Origin: Candidatus Vecturithrix sp. | GTDB lineage: Bacteria > Moduliflexota > Moduliflexia > Moduliflexales > Moduliflexaceae | Assembly (NCBI GenBank): GCA_040772385.1 | Contig: JAXGYF010000001.1 | Coordinates: 5,048,545-5,112,544, forward strand | DNA length: 64,000 nucleotides | Direction of reading: 5' to 3' | Part shown: positions 41,709 through 59,052 of the stretch, one piece after another | Layout of the letters: the number at the start of each line of letters is the position of its first letter | Position numbering within the stretch: the first letter of the stretch is position 1 | Position numbers and translations under genes: made by a program | Notes under the pieces: model-generated | Database searches by the model: none | Seen by the model: only the letters and a program-made list of their open reading frames with translations | Told to the model about the DNA's origin: nothing

Positions 41709-44114
41709 ATGAATATACCACCAAGATTACAACATAGAATTGTTGATTTTCTTATATCTCTTCCGAGTATTCATGATAATAATAGTCAACGATCATTAAT
41801 CTACCAAGCCGGTCTAGATACAGAGTTACAAGGTCAGATTTCATTTGATAAACCAGCTATGCAGTTTGCCCTCTTCCTTGTGTCAACCTTAATAAAATAT
41901 GGTAAACTTAGTGATGGGCGATACGCTATTGAAGCTATTTTGGAGGCAGCAAAGAATTTTGTAGGACAAGATAGGAAAATATATTGTGAAACATTGATAA
42001 ATGAACTGCATGATTATACAATTGAAAAAGCTGATACACCATTATCAGATGATATCCCATTTTTAAAAAAGAGAAATTCTATAGTAGATGCTAAATACGA
42101 TCCCAAATTAGTCACAGAAATAAGGATAACTCCACCTGACTTGACTAATCAACAACAGTTACAAAATACTGGTGATAATTCTTTTGAGATAGATGCTTTT
42201 AAATCAAAGCTCTTAGATTATGAATTGAGTCAGTTAGGCTTACCTTCCTTGATTTTCCATCGGAACAATTTAGAAAGTGAGGGATTGCAGCTTATTCGTG
42301 AGGGTATTCTGCCTGTCATTTTGATTCAAGGTCTCCCTGGCTATGGAAAGACTGTATTGCTTGGTGAACTTGCCAAAAAGATTGGCCATGAATTTCAATA
42401 TACTTTGGTGTTAAATTTTTCTGGTCCAGCTTCTATAGAACCTTCTTATGTCATCGAAGAAATAAATACATTTCTCAATAAACTTGGCCGTGGTATTGAT
42501 ACAGAAATACTCAGAAAACAGAGTACTCAACGCTCTCTTCAAATTCTTATTCCTCAGATGATGGATCTACATCTTCTTCTACTTTTAGACGCAGTAGATG
42601 GTGTACCTCCTGGACAAATTGAAACATTTTTGCAATTCTTAACGGCAACCCCTAAAAATCGACTCATTATGACCGCTCGTTATAGAATCGTAAATAGGTC
42701 GAATGCTCATATATTACATGTGCCTCCATTATCGAACAAAGAAACTGCCGATTTTGTTGAACAGTATACTAAATCAATGAAGATCGGGGTTAATATAAAG
42801 GATTTATTGGAAAAACTCCCCAACAACATTAAAGAACATCCTCAAGCATTAAGCATGATTTTAGCAAATTTAGTTGATATTCCATTTGAACTTTTAGTAA
42901 TGCAAAGCTTCCATGACGATACATTAATCCTTCAACAGTTGGCTAAAAACATCCTTCTTGCTATAGATAAGGAAGTGTTGACTTGTTTAGTATTTATGAT
43001 AGTATTAGATGATCTTGACTTTATGGATACCCTTAAAATTTTAGAAATAAATCCTCCTAAAGGTCTGGTGAATTCTATTAATCTGTTATTGGAAAAGTCT
43101 TTGATTTATCGCCATGAAAATTCTTATCGTGTGCCTTCAATTATACATGAAGGGGTATTAAATTTAATTCCTGATATTGCAGAGACTATTCTAAATCAAA
43201 TAGGTTATATCTTAGAATTAAAAATCAACAGAATGCATTTACAAAGGGTATCAGATCATTTTGATAATCTTATTCCCATAGTTGTTACTATTATTCATCA
43301 TTTTTATCAAATGCGATCTTATGAATGGGTAACTAAACTTGTTATTGATGAATTCTTAGAATTTATCAATATGCGGGGTTTTTGGAAAGAATATTGGCTC
43401 ATTTTACGAATATCTTTTGATGCTGCAAAAAGAATAAACCAATTAAATATCTTTTCCAAAATAGGGTTTAGGATTGCTCGTAAATCTTTACAAATCCACG
43501 ATATTGATACTGGGAGTCAGGTATTAAGTGATGTGGAACGAGTTATTGGTGTTGATGGTAATACAATGGAGCATGCAGAATTTTGGAGTCATAAAGCTCT
43601 TTTCACCGAATTAACTGGATATACGGAGAATGCCAAAGAAGAACTACTGAAAAGTCTCCAAATTCGAGAATCGCTCTATGATGCTGAAGGTATTGCTGTT
43701 ATCCAAAAACTTTTAGGTAATATTCATTTGCGTTTAAAAGAATCAGATATAGCACGTCAATATTATGAGTCAGCATTGATATCTATCAATGAAAATACTT
43801 CCCAATTCAAACATATTATCGAAGTGGAAACGAGTCTCGCTTTGTGTGATCTGATAGATAATAAATTGGAATCGGCTGAATCCACACTTAGAAAAGTTAT
43901 TCAAAATTGTAAGAGTAAAGGCTATTTAGCTGGACTATCAAGAGCTTACTACAATTTGGCTTTAGTACTTGATCGTCAAAAACGTGTTGCTGAAGCTTTT
44001 TATTATGCTGAAATTGCTTCTAAGGAAGCTTTAAAAACAGATAAAGATATTATACTCGGTTCAGGAATACTTATGTGGCGATTAAAAAATTTAAAAGGAA
44101 CCTCTTGTAAATAA
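41709..44114 (+). CDS. STAND-class NTPase (NB-ARC-like P-loop) with an N-terminal alpha-helical adaptor/effector-associated-like domain and C-terminal TPR-like repeats
   Basis: Walker A LIQGLPGYGKTVLLGELAKK, Walker B HLLLLLDAVDG, a helical C-terminal half with TPR-like periodicity, and a 100-aa N-terminal helical domain. AT-rich at ~36% GC. Confidence 0.65.
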   Translation: MNIPPRLQHRIVDFLISLPSIHDNNSQRSLIYQAGLDTELQGQISFDKPAMQFALFLVSTLIKYGKLSDGRYAIEAILEAAKNFVGQDRKIYCETLINELHDYTIEKADTPLSDDIPFLKKRNSIVDAKYDPKLVTEIRITPPDLTNQQQLQNTGDNSFEIDAFKSKLLDYELSQLGLPSLIFHRNNLESEGLQLIREGILPVILIQGLPGYGKTVLLGELAKKIGHEFQYTLVLNFSGPASIEPSYVIEEINTFLNKLGRGIDTEILRKQSTQRSLQILIPQMMDLHLLLLLDAVDGVPPGQIETFLQFLTATPKNRLIMTARYRIVNRSNAHILHVPPLSNKETADFVEQYTKSMKIGVNIKDLLEKLPNNIKEHPQALSMILANLVDIPFELLVMQSFHDDTLILQQLAKNILLAIDKEVLTCLVFMIVLDDLDFMDTLKILEINPPKGLVNSINLLLEKSLIYRHENSYRVPSIIHEGVLNLIPDIAETILNQIGYILELKINRMHLQRVSDHFDNLIPIVVTIIHHFYQMRSYEWVTKLVIDEFLEFINMRGFWKEYWLILRISFDAAKRINQLNIFSKIGFRIARKSLQIHDIDTGSQVLSDVERVIGVDGNTMEHAEFWSHKALFTELTGYTENAKEELLKSLQIRESLYDAEGIAVIQKLLGNIHLRLKESDIARQYYESALISINENTSQFKHIIEVETSLALCDLIDNKLESAESTLRKVIQNCKSKGYLAGLSRAYYNLALVLDRQKRVAEAFYYAEIASKEALKTDKDIILGSGILMWRLKNLKGTSCK

Positions 44115-44123
44115 GGAGTATGT

Positions 44124-44342
44124 ATGTGGTTTCAAGAAAGTAGTGAGATTATCACTCGATTATTCAGTTTATCAATTTTGTACTATGAGGCTAGTGGTGA
44201 CGCTAATTGTAATTGGCGAGAATTGGACAAGCAACTCACAATAGAAAAAGAATTTCTTTTATCAAATGGTCATGATTTGATAGGAATAGATGCTATTTTT
44301 GAAGAAGTCAACATGATTATTGGGTTTATCCTAAGTAAATAA
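44124..44342 (+). CDS. Small hypothetical protein (72 aa) immediately downstream of the STAND NTPase
   Basis: An ORF tightly coupled to the STAND gene, starting 10 nt after its stop with a GGAG RBS. Confidence 0.35.
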   Translation: MWFQESSEIITRLFSLSILYYEASGDANCNWRELDKQLTIEKEFLLSNGHDLIGIDAIFEEVNMIIGFILSK

Positions 44343-44449
44343 ACTATAGCATTATTCATTCCCGTTGATCGTAACCCTGACAGGGTTCCAAACCCTGTCA
44401 GGGTTGTAAATGATCAATGTCGATGCATAATGCTATATTACGCTGAGAT

Positions 44450-46405
44450 ATGTGGAAAGAAGAGACGATAAATAAGCTTAAAATTCTTTTAGATGTTGCG
44501 AGAAGGGAGGTTCCTTATTATACAAGTATATTACCTCCAGTATCCATTCAATTACCGGATGATATTTTTGGTTACCTTAAAAATTTTCCTCTCCTTTCTC
44601 GTCAAATTTTGCAAACTCAAAAAGCACTATTATGTTCTTCACATGGAGATATATCTTCTTGGCGCAAAATACGAACCACAGGGACTACAGGTGAACCGGT
44701 AGAAGTTATTTTAAATAAAGAGACTTGGACACTTGAAAGTGAGTTGTTTGCCTCACATATAGATCGTTATTTACAACGCCTTGATTGGCATCAAAAAAAG
44801 ATATTTTATTTAAATCTACATCCTAGTGCAAGCTCCCGAACTCTTCCTTCTAAATGGCATGATGAAGCACAAATGATAAAATGGAATCTAATTCGAATTT
44901 GGCAATTATCTGATGAAAAATTTATGAATTCCATTGAATGCCTTAATGAAAGTATTATTACTACCATGGCTTCTGTCGTAGAACTCATTTGCTCTCGCAT
45001 ATTAAAATCAGGCATCATAAACAAAATTCATCCTTCCCTTATTGTTTTATCAGGAGAAACTATCCTTCCAGAGACAAGAATGCTTATAAACGAGGTGTTT
45101 AAATGTCCTGTTACCTCTCTCTATACAATGGCTGAGGTTGGAATTATTGGATCAGAACAAATAGATCCAAATGTTTATCAAGTAGAAGAATCTGCTGTAA
45201 TAGTAGAAATTGTTGACGAAAACGGTAATCGAGTTCCTCAAGGAATTGAAGGAGAGATTATTATTACCCCTTTAAACAATGTGGTAATGCCACTTATTCG
45301 GTATCGTACTGGAGATCGGGGTTATTGGGTTGACATTGATTCGTCTCCTCCAATTTTTAGATTAGTTGAGGCTCGCCGTTCCTATCACTTGATTACAGAA
45401 AATAATGCTTCGATGAACGTTGTTAGATTTACAAAGATGTTAGCTTCTCTCAATGTTGATCGTTATCGGATGGATCAGAAACAGGATGGGACTGTTATTT
45501 TCTCTTATTATTCTCAAAAGAGCGCATTTAGTGAAATGGACTATTCCCTTGTTAAATCAGTAATTCGTGGTGCCTTTGGTCCTGAAGTCAGGATAGAGTT
45601 TTATCAGGTTGAAGATCGTAACACTCTTAGTCAAGCTCCAGATCAGATTCAACCATCACGAGAATATATTACTTCTCCTAACGCGGAACCATTAGACCCG
45701 AGTTTAGTAAAATTAGCTTCTTGGCTTCGTCAACAATTATTTGATGAGATCCAGATAGATGCCGCTATTCTTACGGGCTCTGCCCTTGATCATAGGACAA
45801 CAACTCGTTTTAGCGATATTGACTTAGTAGTTTTAGTTCAGAATAATCCAATGGACTCTTATTGGATTAAGGTATCACGTAACCTTATATCTCATATTCC
45901 ACAGCTTTCCATAAATTTTGACTATATACGTGGTCTTTCATATCGCTCACCATTGCTTGCTTGTCGTTTATTATGTGAACAAATCCCAGTAATTGGTAAA
46001 GTAGATGAATATATTCTGCCATGGCCTAAACTGGAAAATTTACGACTTCAAGGATTATATTGGTCTCAAGATACTATCGGAACACTTTGGTTAAGGCTTG
46101 TAAATTTAAAAGTATTAAGTATGGATCCAATACGTGAGGCATGGATAGCTACAAAGCTTATTCTGGAGGCTCTTCGTTACCGTTATCTTGTTCGAAGTGA
46201 GCACGAGACATCATCTGTTTGCATATTAAATAAGCTAGAGAAAGATATTGAAATTCCGGATTTATGGAAAAGAGACTTATTTGACATGTTTAATGTTGCA
46301 AGAGAACATCTCCCTCCACCTCTCATTAATAGTAATATAGTTGAACATTATTTACAATTAGCTTTGTCATATATTCGTTTTATTCAGATTGACTTAATGC
46401 GATGA
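44450..46405 (+). CDS. Fusion protein: PaaK/F390-synthetase-like adenylate-forming enzyme (N-terminal ~430 aa) plus minimal Pol-beta-type nucleotidyltransferase domain (possibly followed by a HEPN-like helical region)
   Basis: ANL motifs IRTTGTTGEPVEV and IRYRTGDRGYW. A C-terminal GSALDHRTTTRFSDIDLVVLV minimal nucleotidyltransferase signature. The tail carries an RYLVRSEH R-x(4-6)-H-like motif. Confidence 0.6.
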   Translation: MWKEETINKLKILLDVARREVPYYTSILPPVSIQLPDDIFGYLKNFPLLSRQILQTQKALLCSSHGDISSWRKIRTTGTTGEPVEVILNKETWTLESELFASHIDRYLQRLDWHQKKIFYLNLHPSASSRTLPSKWHDEAQMIKWNLIRIWQLSDEKFMNSIECLNESIITTMASVVELICSRILKSGIINKIHPSLIVLSGETILPETRMLINEVFKCPVTSLYTMAEVGIIGSEQIDPNVYQVEESAVIVEIVDENGNRVPQGIEGEIIITPLNNVVMPLIRYRTGDRGYWVDIDSSPPIFRLVEARRSYHLITENNASMNVVRFTKMLASLNVDRYRMDQKQDGTVIFSYYSQKSAFSEMDYSLVKSVIRGAFGPEVRIEFYQVEDRNTLSQAPDQIQPSREYITSPNAEPLDPSLVKLASWLRQQLFDEIQIDAAILTGSALDHRTTTRFSDIDLVVLVQNNPMDSYWIKVSRNLISHIPQLSINFDYIRGLSYRSPLLACRLLCEQIPVIGKVDEYILPWPKLENLRLQGLYWSQDTIGTLWLRLVNLKVLSMDPIREAWIATKLILEALRYRYLVRSEHETSSVCILNKLEKDIEIPDLWKRDLFDMFNVAREHLPPPLINSNIVEHYLQLALSYIRFIQIDLMR

Positions 46406-46422
46406 GGTAAAGCAGAGAAAGG

Positions 46423-46534
46423 TTCTAACGATCTGCTTGCACCGGAGCGCAAAGGGCGGGCGGAAAAATGGGTTGCTGAATGTCGGGCTTGGGTGCCGCC
46501 CGCCCTTTCCGCCCGGTGAAGCAGGGCGTTCGGC
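46423..46534 (+). other. attC-like cassette recombination site (~110 bp): TTCTAAC ... GGGCGGGCGG ... CCGCCCGCCC ... GCAGGGCGTTCGGCG
   Basis: An imperfect inverted repeat with an RYYYAAC-like 5' end and a GTTCGGC 3' end. It sits immediately after the stop of the 44450-46405 gene. The same architecture recurs at 55512-55621, 59898-60008 and 61102-61215, and the 3' end alone matches at 63986-63992. Confidence 0.55.
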
Positions 46535-46564
46535 GTGTACGCTTTGTAGAAAAGGAACAAATCT

Positions 46565-47389
46565 ATGGATGCTAATAATGAAAAAATACAAGGCGAAGTT
46601 AAATGGTATGATCCTCATAAAGGATATGGGGTGCTTGTTGATGATAATCAAAATGAATATTTTATTCACCATACAAATCTAAGCTTTGAACAAAAACAAC
46701 TATTTGCCTTTGAGCGAGTCGCATTTCTCTTAAAACCACGACAACATGGTAAAGAAGGTCTTGAAGCATATGAGATAGATATACTCCCTCCATCCCCTGT
46801 CGAAGAAAACGATGAGCACTCGATTCGGGTTCAGGATATTCTACGCAAAATGCAAGGGTGGTTTAGAATGCGTGCTTCATTTCAACGAGAATATGCTGAA
46901 CAAAAAGCTAAATGGAATGTTTGGGATGATATGGCTGATGAATATATCGAATTTCAAGAACCATTGATACATATTCAGAATACATTTAATTTAGAAATGA
47001 TTCCTGCCCATCCTGACATAATCGCTAAAGCCTTTACTCCTGGGAATGATATGCCAGTTGGGGCGTTTACACGAGCAGTAGATATTGATGATTATGAAAG
47101 ACGTAGAGGAGTTTACGCCTGTATGGGAAATGATGAATTGATTCTTATTGTTCATGCGTTCTATAAAAGTCGTAAGACTCGCATAGATTGCTGGAGGGCT
47201 AAAATATTTCGTCGCAGAGATGGAAAGATTATCTCAATGCCTGATAAAGGAACATACACAGGACATTTCAAAAGAAATATCTGGAGAGAGCGGTTTGATT
47301 ATTTTTTACAGGATATTCAGCATATGATGGCAATAGCGACACGAAACAGAATGAGTACAAACGATATGGATATAAATGATCTTTTTTAA
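46565..47389 (+). CDS. Cold-shock-domain protein with a C-terminal extension of unknown function (274 aa)
   Basis: The N-terminal GEVKWYDPHKGYGVLVDDNQNEYFIHHTNL matches CspA-type RNP1/RNP2 motifs. The remaining ~200 aa are unassigned. Confidence 0.6.
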   Translation: MDANNEKIQGEVKWYDPHKGYGVLVDDNQNEYFIHHTNLSFEQKQLFAFERVAFLLKPRQHGKEGLEAYEIDILPPSPVEENDEHSIRVQDILRKMQGWFRMRASFQREYAEQKAKWNVWDDMADEYIEFQEPLIHIQNTFNLEMIPAHPDIIAKAFTPGNDMPVGAFTRAVDIDDYERRRGVYACMGNDELILIVHAFYKSRKTRIDCWRAKIFRRRDGKIISMPDKGTYTGHFKRNIWRERFDYFLQDIQHMMAIATRNRMSTNDMDINDLF

Positions 47390-47556
47390 GAATTTTGAAT
47401 TATGGATACTGCTCGCTTTATTATACGATGCAAAATATGTCCACCTGTGCAAAGCTAAATTTATAAAAATTTATAGACAAAGATCATCTGGGTATGAGAA
47501 TACGGTTGAGACGGGAAAATTGTCAAGAAGAATCCTAACGCCAGAGGAGGTCTCTC

Positions 47557-49088
47557 ATGAACGCCTATAAAATTCGTATCAATATTGAAATCACGCCAAC
47601 CACCGACACACCACATTCCTGCCCTACTCACCGTGACGATGGGGGGCTTGAGGTCGTCATTCCAGAAACGGAGGCGAGCAGCATCGATCTCTGTGAGCGA
47701 CGCCTTCTGGAGACCAGCCATCCGGCGATTCGTGACGCCCTGGCCCGCCATTTGAGTGCCTTGTCAAAAAAAAAGCCTTGGCCCACGGAACTGACACAAT
47801 GATTCGTGACAAGGCGTATCCATATTGGGTTGATGGGGAAGTTGGTCGCTTCGAATTTACGACCCATCAGGTGTGTGATGGCGAGCGGACGCTGTATGAC
47901 ACCGCCTCCGAGTTCTTTCCTCAACGAGGACGATGGGAATGGTACAAGACAAGCGGGTTCAAAGAAGTGGCCTATATCCATGGTGTGACGGAAGCCTCCT
48001 ACCGGAAAACCAGTCGGTGGCTCAATCGTGTGCGCGATCAGTCGGAGCGCGAGGGCACCCCGGCGCGCAGTCTTCAAGCCCAGGCGGAAGGGGAAGGCAT
48101 CAGACTGTGAGAGACGCTTGACCGCAAAGCGAGTCAAATTTTGGCGATCTCTCATGTCTCCGAGTCCAATGGCCGAATGAGTGTGCCGGACGTCCTGCCC
48201 CCGTCCTCGTCGCCAACGATCCCCCAGGTTCGAGTGGACGCGGCGATTGAGAGGTGTCAGCACCGCATGAAGACGCCTCAGAACCTCTGGAGCAATCCAG
48301 TGCCTTACGAAATGCCGGAACTGACCGTGAACCTGTCGGTGGATGATGTAGGCGTGAAACGGCAAAAGGCTGAACGGGGCTCGTCAGCGCCCCCTCCATC
48401 TCCCCCTGGTCAAGGGAACAAGACACGCACGTATGCTCACACGACCGTGGTGCATCTTGAGCGACAAGGACAGACCTATGTGCTGGCAGGCCATGGCATG
48501 ACCGCTGTCTTTCGCGTGGTGCTGGCATTTTTACTCTCAAATAATCTGAAGGCGTGCCATCTTCAATTTTTTACCGATGGGTATGGGGTGTTACATGAGG
48601 CCATTCGTCGCAGCTTTTCGTGGTGTTCGACGATGGTCATTGTGGTGGATTGGTATCATGTTCTCAGGAAGTGCCAGGTGCAACTCAGTCTGGCGTTCAC
48701 AGGGCGAGAGCGTCGCAATGCCGTCTTGAAGGAGGTATTGCCTCTCTTGTGGCATGGACTGGTTGATCACGCCATTCGCGTTCTCACCTCACTCGATATG
48801 AAGCAGGTCAAAGATCCCAACGCTCTCGCCAGATTAGTCGGCTATTTTGAGCGTAATCGTGCGCATATCCCCTGTTATGCCGTCAGGAAAGAACTTGGCT
48901 TACGAAATTCCAGTCAGATTGGCGAAAAAATGAATGACTTGCTGGTGTCAGAGCGTCAAAAGCATCACGGGATGAGTTGGTCGATTGCCGGCTCTGTTGG
49001 CCTGGCAGCTCTTGCTGCCCTGGGAAGGAACAAGGAATATGCCCAATGGTTTGACGAAGGGGATATTCCGTTTAAGCTTGTCGCATAG
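47557..49088 (+). pseudogene. IS transposase remnant split over three reading frames (47557-47802, 47778-48110, 48141-49088); family uncertain, possibly ISKra4/ISAzo13-like
   Basis: Three consecutive ORFs in different frames, GC-rich at ~58% within an AT-rich array. The family assignment is from recall and is weak. Confidence 0.4.
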
Positions 49089-49091
49089 GCA

Positions 49092-49281
49092 TACAGGAGC
49101 TTTGCACAGGTGGAAATTTATCTTTGTGAAGCAACTTACGGAGAAATTCTTGAAGAAGGAAAAGATGGATTAATTGCTCTTCGTGAGAATCAAAAATTAT
49201 TCATATTAGGCAAGCCTGGTTCGGGTAAAACCACTTTTCTCAAATATATCGTGATAGAGGCAATTGATAACTTACCATTCG
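49092..49281 (+). pseudogene. N-terminal fragment of a NACHT/STAND NTPase gene (Walker A FILGKPGSGKTTFLKYI), truncated on both sides by IS insertions
   Basis: Manual translation gives ...EILEEGKDGLIALRENQKLFILGKPGSGKTTFLKYIVIEAIDNLPFA, stopping at the IS1634-like element boundary. Confidence 0.55.
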
Positions 49282-51300
49282 CTTAATAAAATCTAATAAT
49301 GGTGAATTTCAAGATTTTGATACAAAACATCATCCAATCCTAATCTGTTCAAGATCTCTTTTTGGAGTTCTGATAGAGGCGTAAGATGACGGATTATGTG
49401 ATCCTTCAGATGAATAATTGTCAGGGTAATCCCCTCAAATGCCTTCAGCAACCGTTCGCTGGTCGGCCTGTTAGTGGTCTTTCGTATATTCTCAGGATGC
49501 AATCCTGGGAAAGCCTTCTTTTCCCGCTCTAATGAACGTCTTACAACAAACTCGATACGCGTTAACGTTCGAACTCCCAATGTCAATAAGTGGTTTAAGC
49601 CTTTGACTTGATCCGGTTCCGTCACATACATCGGAGCAATATTCAAACGGTTTTTGAGACGATCGAAGAGCCGTTCAATTCGACATTCTTGCCGGTATAA
49701 TCGTACCGCATCTTCCAAACATCACCTGTCACCGGACGTATCAGTCACGTAGGCTCTCCACCCGAACGGCTCCTTGACGTGCTCAATCTTCGCGGCATCC
49801 CGGGTAACAGCCGTGATGTGATAGCGAATGCTTTCGACCACCTCTTGTTGACGATTCGCCCCTCCTCGGCCTCGGCCCCTGTATTTCGTTGTACGCTCAA
49901 CTTCGCGTTCATACTCAACACGAAGCAGACCGTCAACCCGATGCTGCTTCTCAATCGCCTCAATGGCAGCCTTCAAACTCTGCTCATCGGTTATCTGTTT
50001 TTTCCCTCGGCCACGCGGCGGGGTAAGGGCATACAGTTTCTGCTCGGCCTGGTCCAAACGGGTATCGAACCCACGTTCCTGCTGCCCGGCATGATTGAAG
50101 GACTTGACGACCAACACCCGTTCAGTCCATTCAAGCGTCTGGCCGTTGACCACCCCGGAGCACCGACGTTCAACCTCATACCCTGCGGCCACGATGGCCT
50201 CTTCACCGTTGGCATCTGTGACCACCACAGGTTGAAGGGCTTTCTCCTTTTCCAGGGCAATACCGTCTCGAACCCACTCTGCCATCACTTCCGGCGTCTT
50301 CCCGGTTTGAGGCAGAGGGCAAAGATAATGACCGCCCAGCCCTTTAATATGCAAACGCGTCTCAATGGCACTGAGCTTGCAATCGCCAACATAGAGAACG
50401 CCCTGTCTCTCAAGGACGGCATGAATGCGATTAATCACCGGAACATATAAGCCGTCATCCGCACGCTCGCCTGACACGACATCGGTCGCTAGCGGCATAC
50501 CAAGCGGATCAAGTGCCCCTGTCATGAGCTTGATGTGAGGTAAACTCGGGTCGTCTTTACTATGACCGAATTGAAAAAGACCTCCCTCCCTCACCTCATG
50601 GTAGCCCGAAACCGTCGTCGCGTCACACCTAACGACATCCGTTTCTAAATCATAGGCACGGATGCTCTTCTGATTTAGCTCGGCCTCGATCGGTTCCCAA
50701 TACGACGGCTTGCTCAAGTTCTTCAGCAAAATACCCAGGCGGTCATCCGTAAAATCAAGCTCCCTGACAGTTTGGCCACTCACCGTGCTCAACGTCTGCT
50801 CCAGGTTCTTCACATACTGCCTGACGACGACTTTTCGATGATCGCCCTCAGAAAGAATATAGGCTAACCAGATCACCGCTGTCCAGCCCCAGCTTAATTC
50901 ACGCTGTTTCCAATGGACCGGAATATGGTTGTCGAGAACCTCAGGTAAGCCCATCTGAACCAGCACTCCAATGATTAACACAATATCATCGACCCGCTCT
51001 GAGCGAATCTCGAAGTCTTTTCTTGACTCAACGTGCTCTTTTGTTAACATACGCCTCTATACCTCCTGTGATTTTTTTCTATCATCGCCTCACAGAGGGG
51101 CATATTGCGCAAATTAAATTTTACCTGTCAAAATAAAGCGAATGATGAGTGATAATAATATTGATAAGAAGTTAACTCAAATTCCTATTTTTGTGCCTTT
51201 AAGAAGCTTTGCTGAGTCAGGCTTATCCCTATTTGAATTCATTGTTCGCCAGTTTAAAATTTGTAATTTCCCTGATGCTGGCCCTTTTATTGAAACGATC
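49282..51300 (-). mobile_element. IS1634/IS4-like insertion sequence inserted in the NACHT gene; its transposase reading frame carries an in-frame TGA
   Basis: ORFs 49722-51050 and 49293-49718 are in the same frame, separated by the TGA at 49722-49724. Together they give a ~585-aa DDE transposase-like protein (C-terminal ...GWRAYVTD and ...YRQECRIERLFDRLK). The element boundaries are approximate. Confidence 0.55.
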
Positions 51301-52274
51301 TTGAGAAAAAGAGGTAATTTTAAGCTAACACCTCAGGTTTTCGCTCGACTGAAAGAGAACAATTTACCTAAGAAATATCTGAGTAAATTAAAAAATTTGG
51401 AAAATAAAGAATTCTCTACTGAAGAAGAGCTTTTTACTAATGTCCAAACATTTGTAGATGATAATAAAATTTTTGAAGAATATAAGGCATTATTTTTGCG
51501 ATACGCAAAAAACGAAAAGTGGAAAACTATTATTTTATGTGATGGATTAGATGAAGTTCCTAAAAAAGAAGACAAACGACAGAAAATTATTCAAGAATTA
51601 ATTGATTTCAGTAATGAATTTGAGGAAAGTCAGTTTGTTATCACATGTCGTATTGCTGCCTCAGAATATCATTTTGAAGGTTTTACCTATGTTGAAATTG
51701 CAGATTTTGATGAAAAACAAATTGCCTCTTTTATTAGGAATTGGTTTATGAATAGTTCTTCATTGGCGAACAATTTTCTCGAAGAGTTTGGGAAAATTGG
51801 TAATGAACGACTTCGTGATCTTGCTAGAACCCCTCTGATTCTTACACTTTTATGTATTTCTTATGAGAACACTCTTGAACTACCAATTCGACGCTCAGAA
51901 ATTTATAAAGAGGCTCTTGATGCATTATTGGTGAGATGGAGTGCTACTCGGGGAATTAAACGAGATGAAATATATAACCATTTATCTCTTGGCAGAAAAC
52001 AACAAATGTTTGCCCGTATTGCTGCGGAGACTTTCCAAAAGAGTCAGTATCTCATTAAACAAGAAGTTCTGGAAGAAAAAATTATTAAGTATTTAAGAAA
52101 TTTACCGCAAGTAAGTATGGATGAAGAGATTAATGGAACAGCAATTCTTAAAGCTATTGAATCCCAACATGGGATTTTTGTTGAGAGAGCCCAGGGCATT
52201 TACTCATTTTCTCATCTAACCTTTCAAGAATATTATGCCGCAAAATATATTTATGAACACCTTGATAAAGATAT
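51142..52274 (+). pseudogene. C-terminal fragment of the NACHT NTPase gene (Walker B ILCDGLDEV, TCR sensor, TPLILTLLC), truncated at its 3' side by IS91-family copy 2
   Basis: The 51142-52341 ORF lacks a Walker A motif. Its last residues (...LNKAAGRQKSFASLPTIFLLP) are encoded by the IS91-like left end. Confidence 0.6.
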
Positions 52275-52415
52275 GTTGAACAAAGCCGCAGGGCGGCAGA
52301 AGAGTTTCGCGTCCCTCCCCACCATTTTTCTCTTGCCATGATCTGAGGCGGTGTCATCCTGCTCCATGATGTATTCATGAGATCTCTGAACCTCTTTCAT
52401 CATGGAGGCCCTCCT

Positions 52416-53282
52416 ATGACCGCTCTCAGACACCGATTCATCGAAGACCTGCAGTTGCAAGGCACGTCTGACCGGACGCAACAGGCGTACGTCCGCGCGG
52501 TGCGGATGCTCGCCGAACACTTTCACACCCCGCCGGATCAGCTCACGGACGAGCAGATTCGGCAGTATGTCCTGTACGTCAAAAACACCCGACACTGGTC
52601 GTGTTCGACCATGAAACAGGCCCTCTGCGCCATCAAAACCTTCTACACCCAGACCGTACACCGGGAGTGGGGTCTGCTGGACGTGATTCGCCCGCCAAAA
52701 TCGCAGACCCTGCCCGATGTCCTGACCCACGACGAGGCGCAACGACTGCTTCAGGCGGTGCGCCTGCCGCACTACCGGCTGTGCTTGACGACCATCTACT
52801 CGTGTGGCTTGCGCCTGACTGAAGGCGCCCAGCTCCGGGTGACAGACATCGACAGCGCCCGGATGCTCGTGCATGTCCGCCGCGGCAAAGGGGACAAAGA
52901 CCGGTATGTGCCCCTCCCACAGCGCACCCTGGAACTCCTGCGCCAGTATTGGCTCACGCACCGCCATCCAATCTGGCTCTTTCCGGCCGGTGGGGCCGGC
53001 CCGGTGCAGCGTCACCCCGCCTCGACGCCCATCTCCGTGAGCACGCTGCAAAAAGCCTGTCGCCTCGCGAAGCAGGAGGCGGGCATCACCACACGGGTGT
53101 CGGTCCACAGTCTGCGCCATGCCTACGCCACCCATCTGCTGGAAGCCGGGGTCAGCCTGCGGATGATTCAAGCGTATTTGGGACATACGTCGCCCCAAAT
53201 CACGGCCCGTTACACCCATCTCACCTCCCAGGCCCAGACCAGCGCGGGCGCCGTCATTGACGAGCTGATGCAGGATCTGTAA
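52416..53282 (+). CDS. Tyrosine recombinase of IS91-family copy 2
   Basis: Paralog of the 39267-40133 gene. Confidence 0.8.
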   Translation: MTALRHRFIEDLQLQGTSDRTQQAYVRAVRMLAEHFHTPPDQLTDEQIRQYVLYVKNTRHWSCSTMKQALCAIKTFYTQTVHREWGLLDVIRPPKSQTLPDVLTHDEAQRLLQAVRLPHYRLCLTTIYSCGLRLTEGAQLRVTDIDSARMLVHVRRGKGDKDRYVPLPQRTLELLRQYWLTHRHPIWLFPAGGAGPVQRHPASTPISVSTLQKACRLAKQEAGITTRVSVHSLRHAYATHLLEAGVSLRMIQAYLGHTSPQITARYTHLTSQAQTSAGAVIDELMQDL

Positions 53283-53309
53283 CCCTCCACACATCTTAGG
53301 AGGCAACGG

Positions 53310-54446
53310 ATGCTGGAATTGGCCGACATCTTTCAGGAATATGGCCCTGCGTATGAGGCGACGTACGGCGACCGCATGCTGCCCAGCCACCGGGATGCGC
53401 TGTGGGATATCGCCCACTGCCGCACGCCTCTGATGGGGGGCGAGGTGTTCTGGTGCGAGCACTGCCAGGATGTTGTGTACAGCTACCACTCCTGCGGCAA
53501 CCGCCATTGTCCGAAATGCGGCGGCGACCGGGCCGATGCCTGGCGCGACGCCCAACTCAAGAAGCTGCTGCCCGTCCCCTATTTTCTCGTGACCGTCACC
53601 TTGCCCCATGCCCTGAATCCGATGGCGCGATCGCACCAGCAGCTCGTCTATGATCTGCTGTTCAAAACATCGGCGGACGCGCTCCAGACCCTGGCCCTGA
53701 ATCCAGAGTGGCTCGGCGGCACGATTGGCCTGGTGGGCGTCTTACACACCTGGGATCGGGCGATGGGGTATCACGTGCATGTCCACTATCTTGTCCCAGC
53801 CGGCGGGATCGATCCGGACACCGGAGCATGGATGCCGTCGCATCCGAAATTCTTGGTCCCCGCTTCGGCCCTGCGGGAGGTCTTCCGGGCGAAATTCCGC
53901 GACGCTCTGCACGCCGCCGATCCGGCCCTCTTCGCGCAGGTCCCACCCGAGACCTGGAGCAAACAGTGGGTGGTGCACGGCAAGGCCGTCGGAGACGGAC
54001 GCACCGCCCTGACATATCTGGCCCCCTACATTGCCCGCGTCGCCCTGTCCAATCGGAGACTGGTCGCCCTGGAAGCCGGGCACGTCACGTTCCGCTATAC
54101 GCCGCGCACGAAGCCCTGGAGGACCATGACGCTCGACGTCATGCGCTTCATGCAGCGCTTCTTACAGCATGTGTTGCCCAAAGGCTTCCCAAAAATCCGG
54201 TATACCGGCTTCCTGCACCCCAACGCCCGGACCACGCTGGCGGCCCTCCAGGAGCAGCTCGCCACAGAGGCCGCTGACGAACGCCTGCCAGCGGCGTTGG
54301 CGGCCACCTTCGGTCTGCAGATTGGCGCCAGCGCGTCCGACGACGCCCCCCCTGACGAGACGCCACGCTGTTGTCCGCACTGCGGCGGGCCGCTGGCCTT
54401 CATCGGCCGCTTCCCGCGATCCCCTCATCGCCGAGGTCCCCCATGA
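53310..54446 (+). CDS. IS91-family transposase, copy 2
   Basis: Paralog of the 40155-41291 gene. Confidence 0.8.
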   Translation: MLELADIFQEYGPAYEATYGDRMLPSHRDALWDIAHCRTPLMGGEVFWCEHCQDVVYSYHSCGNRHCPKCGGDRADAWRDAQLKKLLPVPYFLVTVTLPHALNPMARSHQQLVYDLLFKTSADALQTLALNPEWLGGTIGLVGVLHTWDRAMGYHVHVHYLVPAGGIDPDTGAWMPSHPKFLVPASALREVFRAKFRDALHAADPALFAQVPPETWSKQWVVHGKAVGDGRTALTYLAPYIARVALSNRRLVALEAGHVTFRYTPRTKPWRTMTLDVMRFMQRFLQHVLPKGFPKIRYTGFLHPNARTTLAALQEQLATEAADERLPAALAATFGLQIGASASDDAPPDETPRCCPHCGGPLAFIGRFPRSPHRRGPP

Positions 54447-54829
54447 CACCACGAGCCCGACACCTCACCGTCATCTTCCCACAACCGGTTCGGAAAATCC
54501 TCTTTTTCCGGCGCATCGTCCTCGTCTGCCCATCGCCCGGAAATCGCCTCATGGCGGTGCGAATACACCATACTCACGGCCTCGATATTCCCTTCTGGCG
54601 GCACTCGCCGCGCGCATGCAAGGGGCACATTCCGCCATTCCCGAGGATTTTTCAGCCTCCACAGCCTGGTCATTTCGGAGCAAAATCCAAAGAACACATT
54701 CTCCATATTTTTTCCTTGACATGTCGGCAGATCGCCCCCATACAAAGAGGGGTGGGCTTGTTCAACAGAGATTATGTGCCGGATTCTCGTCACATGAATC
54801 TTTAATCCGTTAGCAGGGAAAAGGTGAGA

Positions 54830-55060
54830 AGGAAGACGAGCACGCACGACACATGCAACACAAACGTCGCGAAACAAAAAACTTGACACCCGAAGATCGA
54901 AGAGAGAACATGTAAGCAAGAGACAACGACACAAAGAAACACCCAATACACAAACAGGCAAGCAAGAAACACACAAGGAAGGAAGAAACAAACAAACAAG
55001 TAAGTAAGTAAGCAAGCAAGAAAGCAACCAACAAACAAACAAGCAACAAGCAACAAGAGA
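54830..55060. repeat. AC-rich low-complexity / microsatellite-like tract (CAAACAAG, AAGCAAGC, AAGTAAGT units)
   Basis: About 230 bp of strand-asymmetric A+C-rich simple sequence, immediately right of IS91-family copy 2 and upstream of hicB. Confidence 0.7.
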
Positions 55061-55069
55061 GGAGAACGA

Positions 55070-55273
55070 ATGAAATTACGAATTCTACTTGAGCCAAGTG
55101 ATGAAGGAGGCTATACGGTCATTGTGCCCGCTCTTCCTGGATGTATCAGCGAAGGAGATAGCCGAGAAGAGGCGTTGAGAAATATTCAGGAAGCGATCAC
55201 CTTATATCTTGAACCGATCGAAGATGATCTGGACTTTATGCCACAGGCTGAACTCTTGGAGCTTGCCGTATGA
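55070..55273 (+). CDS. hicB: HicB-family antitoxin (UPF0150)
   Basis: MKLRILLEPSDEGGYTVIVPALPGCISEGDSREEALRNIQEAITLYLE. Confidence 0.8.
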   Translation: MKLRILLEPSDEGGYTVIVPALPGCISEGDSREEALRNIQEAITLYLEPIEDDLDFMPQAELLELAV

Positions 55274-55497
55274 GTAAAGTACCGAGTGTGAATTATGAGC
55301 AAGTGATTCGGGCGTTGCGTCGAGATGGATGGGTCGTTGTTCGGCAGCATGGCAGCCATATTCGCCTACAAAAACAATTACCCGCAGAAACGTTAAAATT
55401 AACAGTTCCGGCTCACCGCCCGATTAAACGAACGACCTTAGCGCATATTTTGAAACAAGCCAGATTATCGGTGGAACGGTTCAAGAAGCTCTTATAA
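55270..55497 (+). CDS. hicA: HicA-family mRNA interferase toxin (YcfA-like)
   Basis: ...VIRALRRDGWVVVRQHGSHIRL..., overlapping the hicB stop by 4 nt. Confidence 0.8.
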   Translation: MSKVPSVNYEQVIRALRRDGWVVVRQHGSHIRLQKQLPAETLKLTVPAHRPIKRTTLAHILKQARLSVERFKKLL

Positions 55498-55511
55498 TGA
55501 GCGAAGAGCAG

Positions 55512-55621
55512 ATCTAACAATGGCTTGCAGGTGACGCGGGAAGGCGGGCGGAAAAATTGGTTGCTATCATTCAAGCTTAGTTGCGCCCGCCTTCCCGCGC
55601 CCCTGAAGCGGGGCGTTCGAT
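55512..55621 (+). other. attC-like site (ATCTAAC ... GACGCGGGAAGGCGGGCGG ... GCCCGCCTTCCCGCG ... GGGGCGTTCGAT)
   Basis: A perfect RYYYAAC 5' core and the cognate GTTCGAT at the 3' end. Nested inverted repeats. It begins 15 nt after the hicA stop. Confidence 0.6.
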
Positions 55622-55778
55622 TTCCCCATGTATAGTTCAAGCCAAATCGTCATCATTATAAAATCATATCGGCATGACAAACAAAGTTGACAAATTTCTT
55701 GATGCCTGTATAGTGAAATTAATTTGTTTGCTGATAATGCAAAAATGAATCAGGTGGCATATAGGTGAATGTAAGAAT

Positions 55779-56087
55779 ATGAATATACTACAACAAATAC
55801 CTTGGCTTGAGATAGGGCTATATTTTAGCATGATAATGGGTATGGCCGCCAAATATCTCTATGATGAACTTAGTTTAGTCAAAAGAAAAAAGTTCAGGTT
55901 CCGTAAGTGGCAATTTCTTCGACCTATTATCATTTCTCCAATTGTGTTTGGGGTAATTTATGGTCTTACTGATGAGACTACTTCTCCTATACTCCTATTC
56001 ATGTTTTCTTTTCAAAATGGTTTCTTTTGGCAAACAATTTTAAATAAACCTGAAACAAGAGATTCAAGTAACTTTGATGCTTTCTAA
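55779..56087 (+). CDS. Small integral membrane protein (3 predicted TM helices)
   Basis: Hydrophobic segments LEIGLYFSMIMGMAAKYLY, IISPIVFGVIYGL and ILLFMFSFQNGFFW. It overlaps the start of the next gene. Confidence 0.45.
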   Translation: MNILQQIPWLEIGLYFSMIMGMAAKYLYDELSLVKRKKFRFRKWQFLRPIIISPIVFGVIYGLTDETTSPILLFMFSFQNGFFWQTILNKPETRDSSNFDAF

Positions 56088-56109
56088 AACTTCTATGAGG
56101 GTGAATACA

Positions 56110-56988
56110 ATGCCAATAATTCCAATACCTTATCATTTCAGTACAACAATCACACAAAAGGATCTATTCATTAACCGGAAAAATGATATTGGTAAAATTG
56201 TTCGAGCATTATCTGGATTTCAGATGAACAACATTTCTGTCATTGGCGAAAGGAAAATAGGAAAATCTTCGTTGCTTTATTATATTTCGAAGTATGAAGA
56301 ATTGCCAGATATAAAGACAGTATTCTTCGATTTTCAAAATAAAGCTGAAGCAAAGATTTTTTATGAACAAATTTGCTCAGAACAAATTACGGATTCTTCA
56401 CAAAAAATAGCGTATTTTCTTGATGAACTTGAATCCGCCTCAAGCTTCGGAGAAACTTTTTTTAAAAAGTTACGCTCTGTTGCCAATAAACCTAATATTG
56501 CGTTAGTTACAGCATCAAGAGCCCCACTATCTACAATTTGTCCCGAGTTTTCTGATGATTCCTCTCCCTTTTATAATATTTTTGTTCCACAAAGTTTAAC
56601 GAATTTTTCTAAGGAGGATACTATCGAACTAATAACAGAAACACCAAAAAGAGTGGGATTGAAACTAAAGCCCGAACAATTTTTTACTCATGACGAAATT
56701 AGATTAATTGTTAAACTCTCAAATTGCCACCCATGGAAGATTCAACTCTACAGCTACTATTTCTTTGAAGCAAAAGTCAACAATATCATCGAAAAAAATG
56801 AAGTTAAGCTGCAAATTAGAGAGGCTTTAAAAATGCAAAGTGGGCAAAAAGAATTGCTGCCCGTCTTAAATTCAGATATTGATATTAGAGAAGTTCTGTC
56901 TACAGATGTTAGCCCTTTGATAAAAAATCTTTTCCAGTTTTTGATCGAAATAGCAACTGAATATGCCACGAAAAAATATATCGGCTAA
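56110..56988 (+). CDS. P-loop ATPase of the Arch_ATPase / AAA-like family
   Basis: FINRKNDIGKIVRAL...VIGERKIGKSSLLYYI (Walker A) and IAYFLDELE (Walker B). The start could be the upstream Met at 56074. Confidence 0.5.
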   Translation: MPIIPIPYHFSTTITQKDLFINRKNDIGKIVRALSGFQMNNISVIGERKIGKSSLLYYISKYEELPDIKTVFFDFQNKAEAKIFYEQICSEQITDSSQKIAYFLDELESASSFGETFFKKLRSVANKPNIALVTASRAPLSTICPEFSDDSSPFYNIFVPQSLTNFSKEDTIELITETPKRVGLKLKPEQFFTHDEIRLIVKLSNCHPWKIQLYSYYFFEAKVNNIIEKNEVKLQIREALKMQSGQKELLPVLNSDIDIREVLSTDVSPLIKNLFQFLIEIATEYATKKYIG

Positions 56989-57022
56989 ACTTCCTTATAT
57001 GTTAAACATATTCAATCCATAA

Positions 57023-57233
57023 TTGTGATGTGAAGGCACATCGTGGAGTGTTTTGGTGAAAGCACTCCATAAAAATTGAAAAAGGATGTACTGCAATCAC
57101 ATCGTAGCCTATTATGATCCTGTTTTTTCGTAATATGGCGTTTTTTCAGATAAGCTGCTGATACGCCGACTCTACGAAGTGCTTGCACGAATGTAGTAAA
57201 TCATCCTAAGCTACGATGTGCCTTCACATCACA
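57023..57233. repeat. MITE-like ~210-bp element bounded by perfect 20-bp terminal inverted repeats GTGATGTGAAGGCACATCGT / ACGATGTGCCTTCACATCAC
   Basis: A perfect 20-bp inverted repeat at 57023-57042 and 57214-57233. A third partial copy, CACATCGTAGC, lies inside. Confidence 0.55.
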
Positions 57234-57254
57234 CATAATAATATTCATATAATT

Positions 57255-58835
57255 ATGATCTCGTTAAATAAAGTACTAGAGCTTCTTGGAATTATCAAGC
57301 AATTGCGTTCATGTGAAACATTAGCGGAAATTGCTAAACAAGAGGATAATTTACAGAAAGCAAGTGTAGGGTTACTATTCAAGAAAGAACTAAATACATT
57401 ACGAAAGATTGTTGCCGATATTAACAAGTTTTTGACAGTCAGCAACAAGATTGAGAAGCATGAGCTATTAGAAGAAATAGTTGCTTTAATCGAAGGAACT
57501 GAATATTATCTAAACCCTAAGTTGGCTGGTGTAATTTATGGACTGATTTATCTTGTAATTTTTGTTGTATTGGCTAGTATAACTATAACTCCATTTCAAG
57601 CGATTATTATCGTTTTTTCATTAGGAGTTTTATCCTATTTTTCGATGGGATTCATTTATACGCTTTACATATTCCCCTTCTATAATAAAAGCTTATCTTT
57701 GATCTTGAAGGAAGAAGAATTACTTATTGCTTCTTTAAATATCAAACACATCCCGAACAATTATATAGTAGGACCTCCTATTCGGCCTGGAAAACATAAT
57801 CTGTTCGTTGGGAGGGAGTTAATTTTTAGGAGGATTTTGGGGTTATTAGAGAATCAATTTGATAAACCATCTATTATTCTACACGGGCAACGAAGAATGG
57901 GCAAAACCTCAATACTATATCACATAGAAGACTATTTCAAAAACTCCTCTACTAAATTTAATATTATCACAATATTGGCCGATATGCAATCTGTTACGCA
58001 AGTCAAAAATGTAGGTGAGTTTCTTTATAATGTCTGTCGAATAATTCGAAATACAGTAAGTAAATATGGAGTAATGGTAGAACTCCCCACTGTTGAATCT
58101 TTTGAAAAACGACCGTTTCTTAGATTTGACGAGTTTTTGGATGAATTAACTAAGCTCATATCTCCGTATAGTTACATCTTTTTAATGTTAGATGAATTCG
58201 AGGAAATAGAGTATAAAATAAAGCAAGGTATCTTTCAAAAAAATCTGCTGGAAGAATTTCGAAGTATAATGCAACATCGAGAAAAGCTGTTCCTAATTTT
58301 TTCAGGTTCACATGCTTTGAATGAGATGTGCAAAGATTTTTGGTCTCCATTTTTCCACATAGCAGAGCCTATTAAAATAGGGTATTTATCTGACGAAGCT
58401 GCAACAAGACTGATAACCACTCCATGGGAGAATTTTCCCATTAGCTATGAGTTAGCCGCAGTGAAGGAAATTATGCGAATTACCGGCAATCAACCGATGC
58501 TAATTCAGGTTATTTGTCGTACACTCATAGATCAAATGAATGAACAGTTGGATTCACAACAAATTCTTCCATATAAGTTTCCAAAACTTAGAATCCAAAA
58601 TGTACATGAGGCGATTGGGCAAAGTCTGACTGGAAGTTATTATTTTGAGGCAATGTGGAACAGTTTGGAGAAATCAGAGCAAATGCTATTAACAAATATG
58701 GCAAGAGGGAAGGAAGAGACATCTCAGAATATTGACGATGATGTAGTACATTCGCTTCAAAAAAAGGAATTGCTGACCAATGATAATAAATACAGAATTC
58801 CCTTGTTGCATGATTGGATTCGAGAGAATAAATAG
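57255..58835 (+). CDS. Membrane-anchored P-loop ATPase (N-terminal TM helices plus Arch_ATPase/AAA-like domain)
   Basis: LFVGRELIFRRILGLLE...ILHGQRRMGKTSILYHI (Walker A), IFLMLDEFEE (Walker B), and TM helices at about residues 90-150. Confidence 0.5.
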   Translation: MISLNKVLELLGIIKQLRSCETLAEIAKQEDNLQKASVGLLFKKELNTLRKIVADINKFLTVSNKIEKHELLEEIVALIEGTEYYLNPKLAGVIYGLIYLVIFVVLASITITPFQAIIIVFSLGVLSYFSMGFIYTLYIFPFYNKSLSLILKEEELLIASLNIKHIPNNYIVGPPIRPGKHNLFVGRELIFRRILGLLENQFDKPSIILHGQRRMGKTSILYHIEDYFKNSSTKFNIITILADMQSVTQVKNVGEFLYNVCRIIRNTVSKYGVMVELPTVESFEKRPFLRFDEFLDELTKLISPYSYIFLMLDEFEEIEYKIKQGIFQKNLLEEFRSIMQHREKLFLIFSGSHALNEMCKDFWSPFFHIAEPIKIGYLSDEAATRLITTPWENFPISYELAAVKEIMRITGNQPMLIQVICRTLIDQMNEQLDSQQILPYKFPKLRIQNVHEAIGQSLTGSYYFEAMWNSLEKSEQMLLTNMARGKEETSQNIDDDVVHSLQKKELLTNDNKYRIPLLHDWIRENK

Positions 58836-58853
58836 ATAATCATAGACTAAGAA

Positions 58854-58995
58854 ATCGAACAAAGCAATGCACGTGACTTCGGCCCGCTGTCGCCAATTTC
58901 CGCATACGCCTCTCGCATAACAGTTTGGTGGCAGCATCAAATGCGTTGCCCGTCGTGAGGAGCGGGCCAAAGCCACGTGATTGCAGGCGTTAGGC
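58854..58995 (+). other. attC-like site of a second type (ATCGAAC ... CACGTGACTTCGGCCCGCT ... AGCGGGCCAAAGCCACGTG ... GCGTTAGGC)
   Basis: It ends in a perfect GTTRRRY core, GTTAGGC, with an 18-bp inverted repeat inside. It starts 19 nt after the stop of the 539-aa gene. Confidence 0.5.
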
Positions 58996-59052
58996 CAGTC
59001 AAATGGACTGTAATGAAATAATCGCAAGAAAAAGAGATGAGCTACGAGTACC

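Follow-up and report, generated by a model that had tools for sequence, protein, structure and literature searches.

The 64,000-nucleotide stretch analysed here, hereafter called the window, comes from Candidatus Vecturithrix sp. (GenBank assembly GCA_040772385.1, contig JAXGYF010000001.1, positions 5,048,545 to 5,112,544 of the forward strand), and within it we focus on a broken gene for a NACHT/STAND NTPase that lies among three insertion sequences (IS). Read from left to right, the locus consists of a full-length IS of ISLre2/ISKra4-like (UPF0236-type DDE) character (47440-49114, + strand, 1,675 bp), a first piece of the NACHT gene (fragment A, 49115-49270, +), an IS1634-family element (49271-51149, - strand, 1,879 bp), a second piece of the gene (fragment B, 51150-52273, +) and an IS91-family element of about 2.54 kb (copy 2, 52274-54813, +), the boundaries of the NACHT-derived segments being given +/-4 nucleotides. 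IS DNA accounts for 83% of the interval 47440-54813. While the core of the window has a guanine-plus-cytosine (GC) content of ~49%, the region from ~41.7 to 59 kb is an island of 32-37% GC broken by GC-rich blocks; within it the NACHT fragments have 32-33%, the neighbouring island genes 33-37% and the IS elements 50-62%. We consider it very probable that the locus is a dead internal remnant of a NACHT/STAND NTPase gene of ~763 codons, which was split by the IS1634 element and whose outer breaks lie at the two further IS. The locus is an ordinary IS-wrecked pseudogene and no new system.

Both pieces of the gene carry motifs of the NACHT module. Fragment A (GC 33%), which corresponds to homolog residues ~102-153, contains the P-loop Walker A sequence GKPGSGKT at 49209-49232, in agreement with the pattern GxxxxGK[ST]; it lies in an open frame (49089-49283) that translates to AYRSFAQVEIYLCEATYGEILEEGKDGLIALRENQKLFILGKPGSGKTTFLKYIVIEAIDNLPFA followed by a stop, with FILGKPGSGKTTF encoded at 49200-49238. 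Fragment B (GC 32%, homolog residues ~154-524), the first 6 bp of which are the second copy of a target-site duplication (TSD), contains the Walker B sequence IILCDGLDEV (51529-51558), a sensor-1-like TCR motif in VITCRIAA (51637-51660), a GxP-type motif in ARTPLILTLL (51823-51852) and the winged-helix motif SFSHLTFQEYY (52204-52236). The signature D[GAS]hDE at Walker B, which sets NACHT apart from other STAND modules (bioRxiv 10.1101/2022.07.19.500537), is present in fragment B as DGLDE (51541-51555). The NACHT continuation, placed after about 51300 in the initial annotation of this DNA, in fact resumes at 51150.

A protein search with the concatenated pieces gave a protein of 763 amino acids (aa), P0002, with 68% identity over 97% of the query, and a further one, P0003, with 67% identity. 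When P0002 was compared with the window by tblastn, its residues 102-152 matched 49113-49265 (E 1e-16) and its residues 154-523 matched 51154-52263 (E 5e-169), the two matches being collinear and adjacent. Similarly, a family hidden Markov model (HMM) of 698 positions, made from 110 full-length homologs and searched against the six-frame translation of the whole window, matched only at the two fragments, with HMM positions 96-145 and 143-448, respectively. The joined protein reached 59.0 bits on Pfam NACHT (gathering cut-off 26.7); taken singly, fragment A (profile positions 3-23) remained below this cut-off with 17.8 bits, and fragment B (profile positions 83-166) exceeded it with 32.2 bits. 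Because the fragments are collinear and adjacent on P0002, are the sole matches of the family HMM and score jointly on the Pfam profile, we conclude that they belong to one NACHT gene. The initial annotation had likewise assigned the Walker A piece and the Walker B/TCR/GxP piece to a single NACHT/STAND gene, and the contrary outcome it had named, two fragments that do not align to one contiguous homolog, did not occur.

The gene belongs to a large family, with at least 2,363 database relatives at E <= 1e-5 among the candidates scored, and its full-length relatives measure 640-770 aa. An alignment-based scan of contigs from species-representative genomes returned 138 relatives, with an identity of at most 56% among the best 80 of the 138. 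These best 80 loci come mostly from filamentous cyanobacteria, and also from Chloroflexota, Acidobacteriota, Thiotrichaceae and Ca. Moduliflexus, a spread in keeping with the report that NACHT proteins are overrepresented among multicellular bacteria (bioRxiv 10.1101/2022.07.19.500537). Proteins of the window share clusters at >=90% identity with Candidatus Vecturithrix granuli / Vecturithrix sp., which are filamentous, fermentative anaerobes of the KSB3/Modulibacteria; their genomes exceed 7 Mb and have a GC content of about 50% (PMC4312070). With the bacterial NACHT or NLR-related STAND NTPases (bNACHT, PF05729) the window gene shares Walker A, DGLDE, TCR, GxP and the winged-helix His motif. 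Unlike these proteins, however, it keeps just ~424 of ~763 codons, all internal and in two pieces, so that no working member is possible, and its nearest full-length relative is just 68% identical. The winged helix is present, but the complete tripartite architecture of N-terminal effector or adaptor, NACHT and C-terminal sensor is not. The nucleotide-binding domain of the NACHT module also contains, in the interval from Walker A to Walker B, a Lys/Glu/Leu-rich insert of ~75 aa (about 51313-51528), which is common only to the window gene, P0002 and P0003 and is not found in other relatives such as P0005 and P0018.

Elements of the IS1634 family, as defined in ISfinder, have terminal inverted repeats (IRs) and duplicate 5-6 bp of their target. 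The element between the two fragments, identified by NCBIfam model NF033559 and with its ends and TSD read from the sequence, is a simple insertion, proven and recent. A perfect 6-bp TSD, TGATAA, stands at 49265-49270 and 51150-51155, and the terminal IRs are imperfect, 14 of the first 17 positions matching (CTYAYCATTCGCTTWAT), with the ends reading CTTACCATTCGCTTAAT and CTCATCATTCGCTTTAT. The insertion point is the codon for Asn153, and Walker A is parted from Walker B. In silico removal of the element together with one copy of TGATAA rejoins the frame with no gap: ...YIVIEAIDNNIDKKLTQIPIF... has the length of ...YIVLAAIGDKIDKKLTQIPIF... in P0002, the rejoined stretch EAIDNNIDKK being as long as AAIGDKIDKK in the homolog, and the predicted sequence of the empty site is GAGGCAATTGATAATAATATTGATAAGAAG. 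With the family match, the 6-bp duplication and the restored frame, the earlier statement that an IS1634-like element cuts the Walker A piece on its right is confirmed.

The transposase of this element is split by an in-frame TGA (49722-49724) into open reading frames (ORFs) of 442 and 141 aa, which match NF033559 with 191.3 bits (profile 1-366) and 77 bits (profile 373-482; cut-off 100), collinear across the TGA. A second copy of the element, 99.84% identical and equal in length, resides in a different gene in an independent public contig (L002, from SRR27558887); its ends are identical to those in the window, and it is flanked by a 6-bp TSD of its own, TAATGA. This copy has the same in-frame TGA (L002:1903-1905) at its different insertion site, and the cluster of the transposase at >=90% identity includes further 442-aa ORFs. 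Since the same TGA occurs in 99.84%-identical copies at two sites, the stop is older than the last transpositions, and the element moved despite the split, either in trans or by readthrough of the TGA. In its length of ~1.9 kb, its IRs starting with C and the 6-bp TSD of two independent copies the element is a typical member of its family, from which it differs by the in-frame TGA. Recoding of TGA was also considered as a cause of the in-frame stops at the locus and was ruled out, as TGA terminates 15 of the 41 long ORFs in the window.

The element on the left had been taken for a frameshifted IS remnant, a description that does not hold: it is full length, with perfect 17-bp terminal IRs TCCACCTGTGCAAAGCT at 47440-47456 and 49098-49114, its division into orfA (47557-47802, 81 aa) and orfB (47778-49088) is native to its subgroup, and its single lesion is an in-frame TGA in orfB (48108-48110), at a position where relatives carry Leu, Gln, Met, Ile or Arg. 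A run of nine A residues (A9, 47766-47774) is found at the change of frame between orfA and orfB, and the conceptual product of 510 aa can be aligned over its whole length with intact relatives (500-530 aa). The closest relatives of the transposase (64-78% identity) are all called as ~431-aa ORFs, as expected if they are split in the same way. In the DNA of three relatives (L003:1259-2796, L004:111-1647, L005:1256-2793) an orfA of 78-81 aa is followed by an orfB of ~431 aa, with the split at an A8 run, and besides these three about 15 clusters at 64-78% identity have ORFs of the same ~431-aa length; the frame offset between orfA and orfB is +1 in L004 and -1 in the other two relatives and in the window. 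In more distant relatives the two are fused into a single protein (500-530 aa), in which SKKKA occupies the site of the split. The conserved A8/A9 two-ORF layout suggests transcriptional slippage or programmed frameshifting.

As to its classification, the left element scores 54.7 bits on the ISKra4 model NF033572 (cut-off 205) and 37.1 bits on the ISLre2 model NF033529 (cut-off 200), these NCBIfam matches covering the C-terminal catalytic part, and PF06782 is found on some relatives of its transposase; a tblastn search of plasmids with the transposase yielded distant C-terminal matches only. It is best called a related UPF0236-type DDE element that is a member of neither the ISKra4 nor the ISLre2 family. 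It resembles both in its length of ~1.7 kb, its terminal IRs and an 8-bp TSD, the latter seen in relatives, whereas its subgroup has two ORFs with the A8/A9 split where more distant relatives have one fused protein of ~505 aa, and the copy in the window has a nonsense codon and no proper TSD. Two relatives show perfect 8-bp TSDs (AATTTTTC and AAATATTC), but the flanks of the element in the window, AAATATGT / AAATTTAT, agree at 6 of 8 positions only, and the left flank is unrelated to the right. The element is preceded by 50 bp of AT-rich, non-NACHT intergenic DNA (47390-47439), which separate it from the gene of a cold-shock-domain protein (46565-47389). If 47439 is joined to 49115, the junction itself reads as an in-frame TGA, and for this reason removal of the left IS restores no ORF. 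The cold-shock-domain ORF was considered as the original N-terminus of the NACHT protein and was ruled out, as it has its own stop codon and the pre-NACHT region is missing.

The element on the right, IS91-family copy 2, is bounded by alignment with another copy in the window (copy 1, 39125-41658), and its left boundary is uncertain within 52274-52278, the ends being defined from two copies that are 84% identical. It contains a tyrosine-recombinase ORF (52377-53282) and an HUH Y2 transposase ORF (53310-54446), both intact; the transposase reaches 364 bits on NF033538 (cut-off 125) and matches Y2_Tnp (E 2.7e-52) and Zn_Tnp_IS91 (E 3.1e-26). The left end is terIS-like, with a hairpin GCCGCAGGGCGGC (52285-52297) beside GTTC on the bottom strand, and a hairpin beside GTTC is likewise found at the terIS ends of IS801 and IS1294 (PMC13181058). 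The bottom-strand flank of the oriIS-like right end reads 5'-CTGC at copy 2 and 5'-GTTC at copy 1. Elements of the IS91 family make no target duplication, have ter and ori ends that differ from each other and carry subterminal palindromes, and use a GTTC/CTTG-type tetranucleotide target at oriIS, with CTGN sites among the rare targets (PMC13181058); those in the window have neither IRs nor a TSD. The element is like the known members (IS91, IS801, IS1294, ISCR) in its HUH Y2 transposase with a Zn-binding N-terminus and in its hairpin with GTTC, while it differs from them in an upstream tyrosine-recombinase ORF in place of orf121 and, in copy 2, in the non-canonical 5'-CTGC flank on the ori side. 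The GC content of the two copies is 61-62%, as against 49% in the core and 33% in the island, and they are distinct lineages, not recent duplicates. Between the right end of copy 2 and hicB lie 256 bp of A/C-rich, non-NACHT DNA of low complexity (54814-55069) with degenerate AAGT, AAGC, AAGCAAC and AAGCAAGCAAGA repeats, which mark the rearranged 3' side of the locus. A dense inverted-repeat array of GTTTCGTATATACGAAAC-like units (38930-39093), which lies downstream of the gene for a tyrosine integrase (37270-38322, -) and ends ~30 bp left of copy 1, may be a binding array for a recombinase or regulator.

The two fragments are at present contained in ORFs that reach into the neighbouring elements. 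The ORF with Walker A, of 58 aa, has its GTG start within the right IR of the left IS and its final 5 codons and stop within the IS1634 element. The Walker B/TCR/GxP/winged-helix continuation is carried by an ORF of 399 aa (51142-52341, +), the first 2.7 codons of which (ATGATGAG) come from the IS1634 end and the last ~21 codons and stop from IS91 copy 2, in good agreement with the 20 codons that had been ascribed to the left end of this copy. Both ORFs appear to be chimeras that begin and end in IS sequence. As P-loop and Walker B are now on separate ORFs and the N- and C-terminal domains are gone, the remnants would be incapable of NACHT switching.

What survives is ~codons 102-527, or ~55% of the gene, and it spans ~half of the family profile; ~101 codons are missing at the N-terminus and ~240 at the C-terminus. 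By tblastn with P0002, residues 1-101 and 524-763 of the homolog found no match in the whole window, and the same applies to positions 1-95 and 449-698 of the family HMM in the six-frame translation. Homolog residues ~60-101 form a pre-NACHT stretch that is conserved across distant relatives and common to P0002, P0005 and P0018, and because of this conservation the absence of the N-terminus is a real loss and not a case of domain variation. The 5' break at ~codon 102 adjoins the right IR of the complete ISLre2/ISKra4-like element, and the 3' break at ~codons 524-528 adjoins the terIS-like end of the IS91-family element. Since the outer parts of the gene are absent, the outer breaks required deletion, recombination or one-ended IS91 transposition besides insertion, and the history comprises, at a minimum, three insertions and another two events by which the ends of the gene were lost or moved away. 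The initial annotation had envisaged three independent IS insertions; this stands for the middle element, which is a simple insertion, whereas the outer two need at least two further deletion or rearrangement events. The in silico removal of the elements and comparison with a homolog, which it had proposed, has the same divided outcome: excision of the IS1634 element restores the frame, but with the outer two taken out the gene is still incomplete.

The IS1634 element inserted at codon Asn153 and duplicated TGATAA. In the reconstruction that we favour, each of the outer breaks would have started as an insertion into the gene, and the outer part of the gene would have been lost or moved away in a second event. 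On the left, this second event may have been an IS-mediated adjacent deletion or a recombination between two IS copies; on the right, it may have been a deletion, or a one-ended IS91 transposition that moved left-flanking DNA off the 3' part of the gene. Several points weigh against this reconstruction. The missing ends were searched for in the 64-kb window, so that deletion is indistinguishable from displacement. A protein search with the homolog termini gave one unrelated weak match and missed P0002 itself, and is uninformative. Finally, going by the flanks alone, the agreement of the left IS flanks at 6 of 8 positions could, strictly speaking, still be that of a decayed TSD; a decayed TSD is disfavoured because the left flank is foreign, non-NACHT sequence.

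Other explanations of the outer breaks can be weighed against the remnant left by insertion and subsequent loss. One-ended (read-through) rolling-circle transposition accounts for 1-14% of IS91/IS1294 events and mobilises the DNA beside terIS (PMC13181058), and the IS91-family element could have inserted in the NACHT gene at another site, overrun its terIS and brought left-flanking DNA to the present site, with the NACHT fragment, the IS1634 element and possibly more as cargo and the 3' part of the gene left behind. The NACHT remnant does adjoin the terIS-like end (hairpin and GTTC), which is the side that is co-mobilised in one-ended transposition, the flank on the ori side is unrelated DNA starting with a CTGN-type tetranucleotide, and the transposase and recombinase ORFs of copy 2 are intact. 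However, the GC content of the fragments (~33%) equals that of the island genes to the left and right, which is as compatible with a resident gene as with an imported one, the transduced segment has no identifiable left boundary, and plain deletion is equally parsimonious; we therefore regard this import as rather unlikely. A further-reaching version, in which an IS91-family element picked up the NACHT core one-endedly and such elements shuffle STAND/NLR modules between loci in filamentous bacteria, is in our view very unlikely; if true, it would represent a transposon-driven route to new receptor architectures, of which the present chimeric ORFs would be an intermediate. Still less credence is given to an assembly artefact, in which the outer junctions would be mis-joins through multi-copy IS and the gene ends would lie beside the IS at the true locus. 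All three IS types are indeed multi-copy or have near-identical relatives in public assemblies, and repeats of 1.7-2.5 kb are classic points of mis-joining; yet the single sequence of 7.29 Mb points to a long-read assembly, and long reads normally span repeats of 2.5 kb, the IS91 copies are only 84% identical and hence not confusable, and each IS runs without a break to its own two ends. Least probable of all is that the 399-aa chimeric ORF is an expressed neo-gene, for example a P-loop-less decoy or dominant-negative partner of the paralogous STAND proteins of the island. The ORF is uninterrupted, takes its ATG from the IS1634 end, has been called as a protein (P0001) by a gene caller and has several intact STAND genes near it, but it is without Walker A, N-terminal domain and C-terminal domain, and its 3' end is arbitrary IS91 sequence. 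Promoter-like sites around the fragments, moreover, are not enriched (8 versus 6.1 expected), and no homolog with a truncated architecture of this type was seen among the relatives, which at full length have 640-770 aa.

The initial interpretation, by which three simple and independent IS insertions struck one intact defence gene whose loss was neutral or advantageous, is unlikely as well. It has in its favour that about 1.3 kb of ancestral sequence includes three points at which different IS families adjoin or interrupt the gene, that the middle event is a clean insertion and that, as a family-level inference, bacterial NACHT proteins are antiphage and can be costly (bioRxiv 10.1101/2022.07.19.500537). 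Three junctions within 1.3 kb would also be improbable if insertion were uniform over the window (p about 0.006-0.02), but the same clustering is unremarkable if IS favour the AT-rich island of ~11 kb (p about 0.04-0.3). Against simple insertions, removal of the outer two elements fails to restore the gene, both outer parts are absent from the 64 kb, the missing termini do not lie directly beyond the outer two elements within the window, and the left IS is without its 8-bp TSD. Against selection for loss, later hits are neutral by default after the first one, the surviving codons show no rate acceleration, and contig scans provided no insertion-free allele with which selection could be tested, the nearest protein being 68% identical: a scan of metagenome contigs with the reconstructed protein gave no hit at all, and no relative turned up when genome contigs were scanned with a hybrid of the window core and the P0002 termini. 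The pile-up would most simply represent a build-up of IS in a dispensable, AT-rich island and in a gene that was already dead. In this respect the window is like other cases of IS nesting in dispensable islands of IS-rich genomes, with several IS families in a short AT-rich accessory region, and has nothing distinctive; Thiohalocapsa PB-PSB1, with 606 IS including IS91, IS1634 and ISKra4 types, may serve as an example of a heavily IS-loaded genome, and only as that (PMC9296519).

The state of the remnant also bears on the age of its inactivation. The 424 surviving codons contain no stop and no frameshift, and in relative-rate tests against 11 outgroups the window lineage had no more unique changes than P0002 or P0003. 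Because stops, frameshifts and rate acceleration are all lacking, and because the IS1634 element has a near-identical copy and a perfect TSD, the inactivation is probably recent, and the gene was probably under constraint for a long time before.

The island around the remnant (41709-47389 and 55070-61094) encodes an EAD8-NB-ARC/NACHT-TPR protein of 801 aa (41709-44114), a 651-aa fusion of a PaaK-like adenylating enzyme with a Pol-beta/MntA-like nucleotidyltransferase, the cold-shock-domain protein of 274 aa, HicBA, two nSTAND2-like ATPases and a NucS-like protein that matches the PADLOC candidate defence family PDC-S11 (E 5.5e-41). Two island proteins turned up in a cluster look-up, those of 801 and 651 aa, and both are singletons at 90% identity. 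Apart from the EAD8 domain, the island neighbours have no counterpart at the P0002 locus, and none was seen in the loci of 80 relatives. For the NACHT gene itself PADLOC gave no specific defence match, the only hit being a weak, P-loop-level one to mad8 (E 8e-5 with the joined fragment, 2e-8 with P0002); its putative defence (antiphage) role is proposed from family and neighbourhood only.

The window harbours several families of short repeats. A GC-rich repeat of ~115 nt occurs four times (46415-46540, 55503-55625, 59890-60010, 61095-61215), and in three of the four copies it begins within about 10 nt past the stop codon of a gene on the + strand. The predicted fold is a long hairpin with about 36 pairs, 13 of which show compensatory changes among the four copies, followed by a second, small hairpin with a CTGAAG loop; it has no Rfam match, and Rfam and tRNA scans of the window found nothing. 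This repeat may be an element similar to repetitive extragenic palindromes (REP) or miniature inverted-repeat transposable elements (MITE), or a structured 3' RNA. The same type of CTGAAG loop occurs in 63-nt units, of which three are in tandem at 23515-23703 and a fourth is found at 29488-29550, and which form the paired hairpins GCGCTTGAGCGC and CCGCCTGAAGGCGG. A dispersed repeat of ~100 nt, present in both orientations and ending in ...GAGACTGGCGATTGATCGCCAGG, lies at 6602-6713, 20766-20877, 31778-31826 and 37116-37227, and a repeat of ~45 nt, TGAAACTACAAGGATTTCTCATAAGCAAGGAT, occurs near 11024, 11129, 17030 and 36998; some of its copies form inverted pairs that surround a sigma-54 regulator and lactate-utilisation gene cluster. 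The ~100-nt and ~45-nt repeats may be regulator binding sites.

For annotation, these findings imply that the 58-aa and 399-aa ORFs should be labelled as pseudogene fragments with IS-derived starts and stops. The lesson of the locus is that a gene that appears to be "cut" by IS on both sides is not readable as a case of simple insertion unless its outer parts are found. The IS subgroup whose two-ORF transposase with an A-run is conserved, and the IS1634 lineage, which spread despite an in-frame stop, could be of modest interest to IS specialists. In itself the locus is of little importance, but it provides a worked example of how insertion sequences dismantle an accessory gene of immune type.

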